A DNA stretch of 64,000 bases from a bacterium UBP8_UBA817 (GTDB lineage: Bacteria; Margulisbacteria; Marinamargulisbacteria; SXXA01; SICP01): positions 12,700 to 76,699 of the forward strand of contig CAMCZW010000007.1 of NCBI GenBank assembly GCA_945888435.1, read 5' to 3'. Of the stretch, positions 2,275-53,834 are shown piece by piece. The position numbers and the translations under genes are program-made. Every line of letters begins with the position of its first letter. Position 1 is the stretch's first letter. The notes beneath the pieces are model-generated. The model saw nothing but the letters and a program-made list of their open reading frames with translations. It did no database searches and was not told the origin of the DNA.

Positions 2275-3180
2275 TCAGAGTAAAAGATCAGAGGCAGAAA
2301 CCCCCGTCATCTGCTGAATTACATCCCCATCGACCCCTGCCGCTTTCATTTTTCTAGCAATCATGAGCTGACTTTCTAAACGTCCATGCTGTATTCCTTG
2401 TTCTATTCCTAGCTCTAGCCCTTGCTGTAACCCTAGCTCTATTCCTTGCTCCACCCCTTTTTCAATACCTCTCACTTCCGCCGTTCGGATTGCTTCTTCC
2501 TCATCCCGTAGCCATGTTTGCCGACCTTCGTAAATGTCGCGCTCCTCATCAGTTAAAAACAAGGTGTCTAGAACGTGGATGGCCTTGGTAATGTGTGGAT
2601 CTGATTGAAAGGGCGAAGCCCCATGGCGACTGCCAAATTCATGAGATTTTTTTAAAAAGGTCACCCATCGATCTAGCGCCGTCTTCACATGGGACAGTTC
2701 TCCATCACACTTTTTAATCTCAATCGTATGGAGCTGCAAATCAGTAAATGTCCGTGCTTTAGAGTTTAGATTTAAGACGCCAAACACATTATGATACTCA
2801 GGTTCATCCAATAAATTAAAGTTAAGGACATGGATGCCGATCGTTTTTCTCAGGGCCTCATAGGGGACGAATTCCTGGATCTGATCGGCATACAACTTCG
2901 ACCAACAATAAAGCGCTCGTTTTTCATATCCCAATTGATCCGTAATCTGCATCTCGATATTCAAATGCCGACCATCCTCCGCCACAGCTTTAATATCAAA
3001 AATGGATACCTTTTCCTGCTGAAACCGCTTAAGCGTATACGGATTTTTAAGCGTCAACTCAACAATCTTTTCCTCAGGTTCAAGTACTGCATTCACAAAC
3101 GCCATCAACAGGTCCTTATTTTCTTCGGACCCAAACAACTTTTTAAACGCAAAATCGACTCTCGGATTAATCTTGGTCAT
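2275..3180 (-). CDS. Rpn-family recombination-promoting nuclease / PD-(D/E)XK transposase-like protein (Transposase_31 family)
   Basis: N-terminus MTKINPRVDFAFKKLFGSEENKDLLMAFVNAVL is typical of the Rpn/YhgA family. The C-terminal tandem GIEKGVEQGIELGLQQGLELGIEQGIQHG repeats are characteristic of this family. ATG at 3178-3180. Confidence 0.7.
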   Translation of the reverse strand: MTKINPRVDFAFKKLFGSEENKDLLMAFVNAVLEPEEKIVELTLKNPYTLKRFQQEKVSIFDIKAVAEDGRHLNIEMQITDQLGYEKRALYCWSKLYADQIQEFVPYEALRKTIGIHVLNFNLLDEPEYHNVFGVLNLNSKARTFTDLQLHTIEIKKCDGELSHVKTALDRWVTFLKKSHEFGSRHGASPFQSDPHITKAIHVLDTLFLTDEERDIYEGRQTWLRDEEEAIRTAEVRGIEKGVEQGIELGLQQGLELGIEQGIQHGRLESQLMIARKMKAAGVDGDVIQQMTGVSASDLLL

Positions 3181-16177: not shown

Positions 16178-16182
16178 CTCCA

Positions 16183-16406
16183 GATAATACTCACCCTAAA
16201 TCCCTCTCTTTTCAAAAGAGGGACTTCTAAAGGTTAATTGTTACACCCCTTATTGAAAGGATAAATAAACCTACAAACAATCGCCGGGCGTATGCAATAC
16301 GCCACTACGGGAACCAATGTAGGGGTACCCCTACGGGATTATGGATTTATCTTAAGGGATCAAAGTCCCTCTTTTGAAAAGAGAGGGATTTAGGGTGAGT
16401 ATTATC
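16183..16406. repeat. MITE/REP-like element, copy A: 42-bp perfect terminal inverted repeats (gataatactcaccctaaatccctctcttttcaaaagagggac) flanking a 140-bp hairpin-rich core
   Basis: Positions 16183-16224 are the exact reverse complement of 16365-16406. The core contains the palindromes ggcgtatgcaatacgcc (16287-16303) and gtaggggtacccctac (16319-16334). Related copies lie at 35810-35924 and 53689-53800. The element sits between convergent gene ends. Confidence 0.8.
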
Positions 16407-16444
16407 TTAGACCAAAGGGAGGTTATGGGGGAGGGTTTGTACCA

Positions 16445-35266: not shown

Positions 35267-35803
35267 ATGATATTCACAAGATTAGCTATACCAGACGTTA
35301 TCCTCATCACGCCAACCGTATTCAGCGATGATCGCGGCTTTTTTATCGAAAGCTATCATCACGAAAAGTTTAGGCAGGGCGGAATTACAGATACATTCGT
35401 CCAGGATAATCACAGTAAATCCGTTCAAGGCACCTTACGGGGTCTCCACTATCAACTCCCACCACATGCCCAAGCCAAACTTGTCCGCTGCATTCAAGGC
35501 GAAATCATCGACGTTGCTGTAGATATTAGGCCTAACTCCCCAACCTATGGTCACTGGGTCAGCCACCATTTATCCAGCGACAACAAACAAATGATCTATG
35601 TCCCAGACACCTTCGCACATGGGTTTTACGTCCTAAGCGACACCGCCGAAGTCGAGTACAAATGCTCCACCACCTATGCCCCCCAATTCGAACGAAGTAT
35701 TAAATATGATGACCCCACCCTCATGATCGATTGGCAACTAATTCCCGGACTCCCTATTCTCCTGTCAAAAAAAGACGAAGCCGCACCAGGGTTTAGCAAA
35801 TAA
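35267..35803 (+). CDS. rfbC: dTDP-4-dehydrorhamnose 3,5-epimerase (RmlC/RfbC cupin)
   Basis: FSDDRGFFIESY and HYQLPPHAQAKLVRCIQGEIIDVAVDIR are typical of RmlC. Confidence 0.8.
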   Translation: MIFTRLAIPDVILITPTVFSDDRGFFIESYHHEKFRQGGITDTFVQDNHSKSVQGTLRGLHYQLPPHAQAKLVRCIQGEIIDVAVDIRPNSPTYGHWVSHHLSSDNKQMIYVPDTFAHGFYVLSDTAEVEYKCSTTYAPQFERSIKYDDPTLMIDWQLIPGLPILLSKKDEAAPGFSK

Positions 35804-35809
35804 CCTGGC

Positions 35810-35924
35810 TTAATACTCACCCACCCACCTCCCTCTCTATTCTAAAGAGGGAGGCTTTTTATACATAAATAATCAAAACCAGTTCCCCTCTTTGGCACAG
35901 AGAGGGGTTAGGGGTGAGTGTTAA
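35810..35924. repeat. MITE/REP-like element, copy B (~115 bp; imperfect TIR ttaatactcaccc ... gggtgagtgttaa; two internal hairpins)
   Basis: Hairpins cctccctct-ctattctaa-agagggagg and cccctct-ttggcacag-agagggg. About 80% identical to copy C and shares its termini with copy A. Lies 7 nt after the rfbC stop. Confidence 0.75.
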
Positions 35925-35974
35925 CCAATTAACTCCATGACATATCAAAGAGTGCCGGATATAATACCCAGATC

Positions 35975-48815: not shown

Positions 48816-50183
48816 TTATAAATTCGGCCTTATTAAAATCGGGCTATAGTCCCCGATCGGCGTAATAACCCAAATCTCATGGGTCTTGATATAGTGATTA
48901 ATAGATGAAAACTCATATCGATCTACGGATACCCGAATAAATTCTGGCGCACCACTCGTAAACGGATTTTTATCAATCAATGACAATACTCCAGGTTTTT
49001 CCCTAAAAAGACCATCAATAAAGTAATGTAGCCACCCTTGTTGATCAAATTGAGAAAGTGCAGCAAACCACATTTGCCAATCTAACCTCGGCATATGAAA
49101 CACTGTCCAATACGGAAAATCAATGGCACGGTTAGGTTTAAATCGAAATTGATACGGATACCAGGTATCGCCATCTCTGCTCCCCTCAATACGAAGCTCG
49201 TTTCTCTCCGTCGTCATCACCGCAAATAATCCATAACGACCCGCCACATGGCATTGGCCCAAGGTATCCAGCTTAAGCCGAGAAGATAACCCAGGATAAA
49301 ATCGCCCTAAATCATAAAGCCCACCAAGCACTAACATCGTCACCAATCCCACAGTTGCCACCCAATACAAACTCCCCTCCTGGGAGGGGGCTGGGGGAGG
49401 GTCACTGACAGGAGGATCCCAAAGCCCCACTACCATCACCAAAACCAACCAGTTGAAATAGCCGTAATTACCCGTAAGTCCGATCATCACCATCAACAAG
49501 ATAATCCCCAATAACGCAATCAGCCTAGTCCGCTTAAAAAAGAGTAGAAATGGCAATACTAATTCCAAACCCAAAACCCCCATGGTCATTAAAAATAAAA
49601 TAAAAGCAGGGAGATGATGAAATAAAAATCCACCAATATGAGGCAAGGGTTGGGTTAAAAAATGATATTCCAAAGCTGTGCCCGCCCACCAGTGCCAATC
49701 GCCACTCAGCAGCTTCACTACGCCGGACATCCAGATGACCCTAAAAAGCAACGCCCCAATCGCAATTTGGCCCCATCGAGTCATCCTCTTGGCCATCAAA
49801 ATAAAAAAGGAAATTAATCCAAACTCTAATAGAAGAATATCCCATTGAAATTGAAAGAAATCAGCGCCAACGCCTACAAATGAGGCATAAAGCACCCAGG
49901 CAATCCCCGCCATCAGACAGGGGAATACTCCTAAAATCATCAAAAAGGAGGCTAAAACACCCCCATAAGCAGCCGTATTAAGAGCCGAATTACTAGAAAA
50001 GATCCAAAATAAAGAAGGGGACTCTGACATAGCTTGAGTCACTGAGCCATGAAAGGCGACACGCTTTACTAATTCGATGGGGAGAATACCGGTTTCACCG
50101 ACAAGCCCTGTAATTTGCAAGGCCACCGACACAAAGGCCATGAGATAGATTAATCCCACTCCAATGCGAAATTTAGAAAACAT
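48816..50183 (-). CDS. polytopic membrane protein, lipase-maturation-factor (LMF1)/HTTM-like
   Basis: N-terminus LIYLMAFVSVALQITGLVGETGILP and C-terminal PRLDWQMWFAAL ... NPFTSGAPEFIRVSVDRYEF resemble LMF1-family proteins. About 10 TM helices. Confidence 0.45.
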   Translation of the reverse strand: MFSKFRIGVGLIYLMAFVSVALQITGLVGETGILPIELVKRVAFHGSVTQAMSESPSLFWIFSSNSALNTAAYGGVLASFLMILGVFPCLMAGIAWVLYASFVGVGADFFQFQWDILLLEFGLISFFILMAKRMTRWGQIAIGALLFRVIWMSGVVKLLSGDWHWWAGTALEYHFLTQPLPHIGGFLFHHLPAFILFLMTMGVLGLELVLPFLLFFKRTRLIALLGIILLMVMIGLTGNYGYFNWLVLVMVVGLWDPPVSDPPPAPSQEGSLYWVATVGLVTMLVLGGLYDLGRFYPGLSSRLKLDTLGQCHVAGRYGLFAVMTTERNELRIEGSRDGDTWYPYQFRFKPNRAIDFPYWTVFHMPRLDWQMWFAALSQFDQQGWLHYFIDGLFREKPGVLSLIDKNPFTSGAPEFIRVSVDRYEFSSINHYIKTHEIWVITPIGDYSPILIRPNL

Positions 50184-51472: not shown

Positions 51473-51483
51473 CAAACCCGTAG

Positions 51484-51508
51484 GGGCGTATTGCATACGC
51501 CCTTATTT
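51484..51508 (+). terminator. rho-independent terminator after fabI (gggcgtat-tgc-atacgccc + TTATTT)
   Basis: 8-bp GC-rich stem 12 nt after the stop. The same hairpin module (reverse complement) occurs inside repeat copy A. Confidence 0.55.
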
Positions 51509-53688: not shown

Positions 53689-53800
53689 GATAACACTCAC
53701 CCACCAACCTCCCTCTCTGTTCCAAAGAGGGAGGCTCAAGGAGTTAATCCATACAAATTCCCCTCTTTGGAACAGAGAGGGGCTAGGGGTGAGTATTATC
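53689..53800. repeat. MITE/REP-like element, copy C (~112 bp; TIR gataacactcaccc ... gggtgagtattatc; two internal hairpins)
   Basis: About 80% identical to copy B. Lies in the divergent promoter region between the NtrC-like and sensor kinase genes. Confidence 0.75.
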
Positions 53801-53834
53801 TTCTTATAGTTGCTTACAATCGCTTAACTCATTT

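Follow-up and report, generated by a model that had tools for sequence, protein, structure and literature searches.

Inverted pairs of BoxC/PIT-type triplex motifs on a metagenomic contig and the statistical link of such repeats to small DUF559 genes

Three intergenic elements in the window, by which we mean the whole 64,000-nucleotide stretch of DNA analysed here, are on their sequence inverted pairs of BoxC/PIT-type intrastrand-triplex motifs, and represent a new lineage of a known and broader repeat class. Across many phyla, repeats that carry this triplex motif are statistically linked to small DUF559 genes, and this link is the result most worth pursuing; the window family alone adds one more lineage to a known class and is of modest interest. 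Knowledge of BoxC/PIT repeats in E. coli goes back to the 1990s, without a function or a source of mobility having come to light, and DUF559, to which E. coli YcjD belongs, is a very large family whose small stand-alone members have no assigned role. With the link repeated across phyla and in E. coli, both puzzles become testable together in a model organism. The interpretation in an earlier note on this DNA, which saw a genome-specific miniature inverted-repeat family or a structured regulatory module, is partly right.

The window comes from a metagenomic contig of 82.9 kb (ENA ERZ27280265). The best named matches to its AspRS, at 60-63% identity, are proteins of Candidatus Margulisbacteria / Marinamargulisbacteria, and the host is probably an uncultured lineage related to Margulisbacteria. 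The elements lie where the earlier note had placed them, their limits being refined here to 16182-16407 (element A), 35810-35924 (element B) and 53689-53801 (element C), with no strand assigned to any of the three, and their gene contexts are as it described. Element A is found between convergent genes, a 139-aa ORF and a panE-like gene, element B in the spacer between the co-directional rfbC and aspS, and element C in the divergent promoter region between a sigma-54 response regulator and a histidine kinase. Element A is an inverted pair of type A triplex-motif arms with a 136-nt interior; element B is an inverted pair of two different arms, and element C has the same arm types as B.

The shared termini and the two hairpins attributed to the elements, CCTCCCTCT/AGAGGGAGG and CCCCTCT/AGAGGGG, are all present in the sequence, and the identity of B and C, put at ~80%, is 80.5% over 113 nt. 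With at most one mismatch allowed, GGGTGAGTRTTA occurs six times in the window (0.50 expected), exactly at the six termini, and a count of six is reached by none of 100 shuffles. The ends of element A form a perfect 45-nt inverted repeat (16182-16226 and 16363-16407). Folded as single-stranded DNA and compared with shuffles, the elements give z-scores of -4.5 to -15, with -8.8 and -9.1 for C and -15 for A, the minimum free energy of which is -65.4 kcal/mol. No part of the window matches an Rfam family at the gathering threshold, and a permissive Rfam scan returns only generic long-hairpin (miRNA precursor) matches, all weak at 13-27 bits. The reading of the three copies as a dispersed, structured and non-autonomous repeat family is supported.

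A copy beyond these three, such as the earlier note had suggested looking for, is present on the same contig. It is a solo or partial type A arm (L119 13520-13575), located ~1.6 kb past the right end of the window; the region around it (L119 13489-13720) would have window coordinates of ~65590-65820. The arm is directly 3' of a Peptidase_S74/collagen-like gene, ~45 nt of whose 3' end are duplicated ~170 nt downstream, where they are followed by a TAACACTCACCC terminus fragment and then by a REP doublet.

All arms share one order of parts, in which a homopyrimidine stem, a loop and a homopurine stem are followed by a short loop (2-8 nt) and a G/T-rich third strand, the mirror image of the purine stem. 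Within each element the two arms are inverted, with these third-strand segments outermost. The left arm of A (16188-16221) reads TCCCTCTTTT-GAAA-AGAGAGGGA-TTT-AGGGTGAGT on the minus strand, and its right arm (16368-16401, plus strand) has the same motif. In element B the left arm (35815-35851) reads CCCTCTTT-AGAAT-AGAGAGGG-AGGTGGGT-GGGTGAGT, again on the minus strand, and the right arm (35886-35919, plus strand) reads CCCCTCTTT-GGCAC-AGAGAGGGG-TTA-GGGGTGAGT, giving 9 triads. The arms of C are at 53695-53731 on the minus strand and 53761-53794 on the plus strand; CCCCTCTTTGGCACAGAGAGGGGTTAGGGGTGAGT is an example of a window-arm sequence.

A scanner written for the triplex-motif rule (pyrimidine stem, purine stem, mirror third strand) finds all six arms with 0 mismatches among 9 matches in the whole window, where shuffled sequences yield 0-2. 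In each of the six, homopyrimidine and homopurine stems of at least 8 nt form a hairpin with a short loop and at most one G:T pair, and a mirror third strand lies 3' of the purine stem, with 8-9 (up to 11) perfect triads. Set against its purine stem, the third block of the B right arm gives G.G, A.A and T.A triads only. The second loop is 3 nt long in the B right arm (TTA), the C right arm (CTA) and both A arms (TTT); in B and C the left arms give a reading of 2-8 nt. A weaker match on the plus strand at 49372-49400 (CTCCCCTC-CTG-GGAGGGGG-CT-GGGGGAGG, 1 mismatch) falls inside a 455-aa ORF (48816-50183) and could be due to chance.

Comparison across taxa shows that the third strand co-varies with the hairpin, as in the pairs AGGGAGGGA/AGGGTGGGT of locus L031 and AGAGAAGG/GGATGAGT of locus L009. 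The joint change of third block and hairpin identifies the apparent terminal inverted repeats, the 'termini' ACTCACCC/GGGTGAGT, as third strands, contributed by two intrastrand-triplex motifs in inverted orientation; they resemble terminal inverted repeats because the arms face outwards. When single-stranded, the G-rich strand would fold back twice on itself to give a purine-motif triplex built from G.G:C, A.A:T and T.A:T triads, the C-rich strand would form a hairpin, and the two arms together would make a long hairpin or cruciform. We infer triplex formation by the window arms from this pattern of blocks. A G-quadruplex reading of BoxC has been proposed in the literature; the right arms here contain two G runs only.

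BoxC, PIT (potential intrastrand triplex) and TMECO are names for the same repeats, found in E. coli and other bacteria (PMC4666352) and treated in work by Bachellier, by Hoyne & Maher (2000, 2002) and by Holder et al. (2015; PMC4666352). The TMECO consensus is CCCTCNCCC-N3-6-GGGNGAGGG-N3-GGGNGAGGG; strain MG1655 has 23 intergenic copies that include five inverted pairs, each pair always mixing two types, and the motif forms a purine-motif intrastrand triplex in vitro (PMC4666352). The window family has the same three-block anatomy, in which a 3-nt loop separates the mirror G/T third strand from the hairpin of pyrimidine and purine stems, and the TTA loop of the B right arm is also the second loop of TMECO type A. 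Both families are intergenic, multicopy and often arranged as inverted pairs, copies B and C mix two arm types as the E. coli pairs do, and both families show presence or absence of copies, with small flanking deletions, between strains. The differences are equally clear. The window arms, CCCCTCTTT...AGAGAGGGG...GGGGTGAGT, do not match the literal TMECO consensus, and their stem is AGAGAGGGG/GGGGTGAGT whereas that in E. coli is GGGAGAGGG/GGGTGAGGG. Third strands are outermost in the window pairs but innermost in the one E. coli pair checked (TMECO 1+2), and the host, a lineage apparently related to Margulisbacteria and uncultured, is also different.

A pattern taken from one arm, AGAGAGGG-N5-8-GGGTGAGTRTTA, gives 24 loci when scanned against reference genomes, among them loci from Bacteroidota (Bacteroidia), Clostridia, UBP8, Latescibacterota and Marinamargulisbacteria; the same DNA pattern has no match in viral contigs. 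Many of these loci are laid out alike, one half consisting of ACTCACCCC and a hairpin and the other of a hairpin and GGGGTGAGT. The element in Anaerobacterium chartisolvens (Clostridia) is 72-76% identical to B and C over ~110 nt, and one arm in a MAG labelled UBP8_UBA817 (L009 7258-7300) is 93% identical to the arms of A. As that MAG is placed in another phylum, the UBP8 arm could reflect either horizontal transfer or a binning error. With the two-hairpin architecture found in several phyla, the description of the family as genome-specific has to be given up.

In comparisons with related genomes the copies behave as recent insertions, present in some genomes and absent from others. The gene order pheT-mutS-rfbC-aspS-carB of the window recurs in a sister species (L115-L117; AspRS 89% identical), whose rfbC-aspS spacer measures 34 nt compared with 171 nt in the window; no triplex motif is found across the 21.8 syntenic kb of this species. 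In a second relative (histidine kinase 75% identical) the spacer at site C is 112 nt, as against 219 nt in the window, a shortening of 107 nt that is taken from gene coordinates only. The empty sites in relatives that the earlier note had proposed as a check are thus seen at site B, and the site C spacer agrees. Copy B also interrupts two independent assemblies of the same species, which break within it at window positions 35856 and 35843, as short-read assemblies do at multicopy repeats.

No clean target-site duplication, a feature proposed as a further check, can be read at the copies. The element ends show only palindromic TA/TTAA, which is indistinguishable from an extension of the inverted repeat, and alignment with the empty site locates the right boundary at site B to within ~8 nt and the left one to within ~25 nt. 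When eight arms are aligned, AGCA..ATAAC(T/C)C is seen to be common to the left flanks of copies A and B and of the fourth copy. The rfbC product ends …GFSK* (…APGFSK*) in the window and …TP* (…APFFTP*) in the sister species, whose last rfbC codons (TP*) align downstream of element B in the window. This altered ending and displaced alignment point to an insertion within the gene, and insertion B probably went into the 3' end of rfbC, carrying ~21 extra nt with it. The last rfbC codons appear to have been replaced at this site (window 35786-35806 and 35925-35946).

A predicted promoter-like site for aspS, ATGACA-17-TATAAT (35937-35965, plus strand), lies outside element B and is conserved in the sister species, so that it is native and survived the insertion unaltered. 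Strain L005 has lost 16 nt (35931-35946) 7 nt past copy B, a deletion that removes the -35 box of this site and recalls the flanking micro-deletions described around TMECOs. The sister species also carries a vapBC toxin-antitoxin pair between pheS and pheT (L115 3857-4452), and none is called there in the window region.

The link to DUF559 is seen in two of the pattern loci, one from Bacteroidetes (L030) and one from Marinamargulisbacteria (L007, of which L010 is a near-duplicate in a second MAG), where a ~120-aa ORF lies between two arms. This ORF is a DUF559 protein (PF04480), a family described as Vsr-like PD-(D/E)XK nucleases (PMC1189080), and the charged DUF559 residues are invariant in an alignment of 20 sequences that includes E. 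coli YcjD. Three more DUF559 genes, picked by protein alone from a 3.6-Mb genome, from Rhodohalobacter barkolensis and from a Flavobacteriales MAG, have motifs on both sides, and all of the loci read by hand (L007/L010 and L030-L033) are flanked on both sides wherever the sequence extends. One of them, L031, holds an array of at least 4 repeats.

Another set consists of 80 DUF559 loci from JGI metagenomes, selected by protein pattern only. Motif density in these loci is 5.6/kb at 0-100 nt from the DUF559 ORF, 3.3/kb at 100-200 nt and 0.72/kb at 200-300 nt, and stands at 0.09-0.11/kb beyond 1 kb. A motif lies at most 300 nt from the gene in 66 of the 80 loci; the other 14 have none within this distance at the thresholds used. 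In the commonest layout the DUF559 ORF is inside an outward-facing pair (10 loci, with a further 14 in which one arm is detected), and in the other common layout it lies between two complete pairs (5 loci). The motifs near DUF559 genes number 143 and have 40 different purine stems, and perfect mirror third strands are found 89 times compared with 17 in a direct-repeat control. On IMG/VR contigs, six of nine good DUF559 matches are flanked on both sides, and the weaker matches (E 1e-9 or worse) are not flanked. The linkage holds in E. coli, Bacteroidota, Balneolota and Margulisbacteria, and a literature search found no paper that reports a link between DUF559 and BoxC/PIT repeats.

The earlier note had stated that no transposase is associated with the elements. 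This is true of the window, where none adjoins any copy, but for the class as a whole it misses the tight linkage to DUF559 nuclease genes. A DUF559 gene was sought on the 82.9-kb contig and in the relatives' loci and none was found, so the partner in this genome is unseen. Two DUF559 proteins that occur on many contigs are each found in a single genomic context. An alternative in which DUF559 forms an IS-like unit that multiplies itself was considered and dropped in favour of a RAYT-like reading, identical proteins having one context each.

In E. coli K-12 a hairpin spans the stop codon of ycjD (L034, 1351407-1351760), and a complete TMECO follows ~170 nt downstream. This copy is TMECO no. 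9 of the published list, 164 nt from fabI and 167 nt from ycjD (PMC4666352). Holder et al. saw no mobility gene, transposase or integrase near any TMECO (PMC4666352), whereas the DUF559 link described here includes their TMECO no. 9, by ycjD. Of 5426 complete E. coli genomes, 3378 carry the gene. It follows phylogroups A, B1 and C, where it takes the place of the eef operon (eefRABCD) at its site (PMC12817139). Copies were counted in an evenly spaced sample of E. coli chromosomes from one search. Genomes with ycjD have 14-29 other BoxC-like copies (median 20, n = 37) and those without it 1-18 (median 4, n = 21), a difference with a Mann-Whitney p of 3e-9 in genomes that are not phylogenetically independent. 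The contrast in copy number, ~five-fold, goes with ycjD but is confounded by phylogroup, and is suggestive only.

We consider it reasonably probable that the window elements are outward-facing inverted BoxC/PIT-type motif pairs, non-autonomous and recently inserted, that are most likely spread in trans by a DUF559 nuclease. In favour of this spread are the layout in which the ORF lies inside a pair, the cross-phylum linkage, the single-copy state of the genes and the scarcity of copies in genomes that lack the gene. The repeats would be acted on in trans by a small DUF559 (Vsr-like PD-(D/E)XK) nuclease whose gene is located at another place in the genome; the enzyme would recognise and nick the folded repeat structure, and the nicked element would then be copied or re-inserted via repair or recombination, in a manner analogous to the action of RAYT transposases on REP/REPIN repeats. 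We infer the activity of the nuclease on the repeats, the copying mechanism and the mobilisation alike. Against this explanation as a whole we count the purely associative nature of the DUF559 link, the lack of a DUF559 gene on the contig, the single context of identical DUF559 proteins, the 14 loci with no motif nearby, the phylogenetic confounding of the E. coli contrast, the fuzzy insertion boundaries with no clean target-site duplication, the departure of the window pairs from the TMECO consensus and their outward orientation, and the published negative results for PIT elements.

A wider proposal, which we advance tentatively and hold to be not quite an even prospect, is that BoxC/PIT-type repeats and small DUF559 nucleases make up a widespread two-part system like REPIN-RAYT, in which a single-copy nuclease gene in or between repeats creates, moves or maintains the copies via their folded form (hairpin or triplex); the window elements would be non-autonomous members of it. 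The likeness to REP/REPIN-RAYT lies in short, structured, palindromic repeats that are intergenic, dispersed and often in inverted doublets, in a single-copy nuclease gene flanked by repeats, and in the smaller number of repeats in lineages without the gene. The nucleases differ, DUF559 having a Vsr-like PD-(D/E)XK fold whereas RAYT is an HUH Y1 transposase, and so do the repeats, the triplex-motif family having no GTAG/CGTC tag and, unlike REP/REPIN, a mirror-repeat third strand. Vsr-like free-standing homing endonucleases, a family described together with fractured genes and split inteins, offer a second comparison, in that a small gene for a Vsr-fold nuclease acts as a selfish genetic unit. 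These endonucleases are found in inteins, introns and split genes and home to a specific allele, whereas the DUF559 genes described here lie between dispersed triplex-motif repeats. If the two-part proposal is true, BoxC gains a cause and YcjD/DUF559 a function, and the occurrence of triplex motifs as marks of unstable intergenic regions is explained.

Chief among the rival readings is a genuine BoxC/PIT-type repeat family that DUF559 does not move and that spreads by other means, for example replication slippage, recombination or horizontal transfer. The linkage would then reflect a preference for insertion near DUF559, a cargo or hitch-hiker gene, or a host repair nuclease under the control of the repeats. 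We regard this as unlikely, but it has evidence in its favour: the DUF559 genes are single-copy and in one context, the repeats also pile up in arrays such as L031, and no DUF559 gene accompanies the four copies on the window contig. For a Caulobacter DUF559 protein, moreover, Vsr-like repair nuclease behaviour connected with cytosine methylation has been described (PMC12907096). A mere preference for the neighbourhood does not readily give the commonest layout, in which the ORF is inside an outward-facing pair and not simply close by, and the same linkage recurs in E. coli, Bacteroidota, Balneolota and Margulisbacteria. The lower copy number in E. coli without ycjD is also what the loss of a maintaining enzyme predicts, unlike an insertion hotspot.

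The elements have terminal inverted repeats and are shorter than ~300 bp, as is usual for MITEs, and the earlier note offered that name for them. Bacterial MITEs such as Correia/NEMIS of Neisseria and Nezha of cyanobacteria are likewise 100-230 bp long and intergenic, with inverted ends, a long hairpin and possible effects on neighbouring genes. On a strict reading the elements would be internally deleted IS derivatives, mobilised by a DDE transposase through recognition of their terminal inverted repeats, and the inverted termini, small size, intergenic location, empty site in a relative and assembly breaks are all in keeping with this. Against it, there is no TA or other target duplication that can be separated from an extension of the inverted repeat, and neither the 24 genome loci, the 80 metagenome loci nor the 82.9-kb contig yields a parent IS or any longer transposase-bearing element with the same ends; the only ORF between such ends in these three sets is DUF559. 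Moreover, the supposed terminal repeat is part of the triplex motif and co-varies with the internal hairpin by the mirror rule, which a transposase binding site does not need, and B and C join two different arm types. We therefore think a classical MITE improbable.

The earlier note had also suggested that the elements might be terminators, insulators or protein-binding sites. That they are host regulatory modules kept by selection, and not mobile DNA, seems to us hardly probable. Two copies have the look of a terminator: on the plus strand the left hairpin of copy B is followed by CTTTTTA (T5) just after rfbC, and so looks terminator-like, and the fourth copy similarly has a T6 tract after its gene, but A and C have no T tract. 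Copy A lies at a convergent junction, as a module of this kind might. The elements are absent, however, from the orthologous sites of close relatives, and their sequences are common to several phyla. In E. coli, PIT elements have no promoter, terminator or in vivo polymerase-blocking activity, and an in vivo DMS footprint shows no protection (PMC4666352). Effects on individual neighbours are a separate matter; on the sequence, termination after rfbC by the B left hairpin and T5 is possible, as is an effect of copy C on the expression of the divergent two-component genes.

An unrelated repeat family is nested in element A. This is a GTAG-type REP doublet (16286-16335, no strand assigned) in which 26 nt are 96% complementary. 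GTAG-tagged REP palindromes such as CCCGTAGGGGCGTATTGCATACGCCC, often in inverted doublets, are also found at 51477-51502 and, outside the window, at L121 19101-19205 and L119 13735-13805, the last a doublet that adjoins the fourth triplex-motif copy. These GTAG REPs may have their partner in a Y1_Tnp gene (L121 19563-20015) that lies ~6.4 kb left of the window. That its product, a 150-aa Y1 (RAYT/IS200-like) transposase, moves the elements themselves as REP/REPIN repeats is highly improbable: the gene is on the same contig, and palindromes with a GTAG tag are present in the window, within copy A and beside the fourth copy, but all triplex arms lack the GTAG/CGTC tag, a 32-nt inverted repeat of another kind, GGGGTCAGACCCTTATGTGTGCAGAAGTGCCA, borders the Y1 gene, and the GTAG REPs are a separate family that is merely nested in copy A.

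Several other features of the window were noted. A 301-aa PDDEXK_2 + HTH_Rpn_C protein of the Rpn/YhgA-like recombination-promoting nuclease family is encoded at 2275-3180 on the minus strand, and no triplex motif adjoins it. Strand asymmetry is strong over the whole window (1-64000, plus strand), with a GC skew of -0.05 to -0.32 and an AT skew of +0.09 to +0.22, independent of gene orientation. A 1579-aa ORF (43988-48727) contains in-frame tandem repeats of 21, 87 and 108 nt (46502-46777), and at 62157-63859 there are two tandem paralogous Peptidase_S74 genes with blocks that are 70-74% identical.
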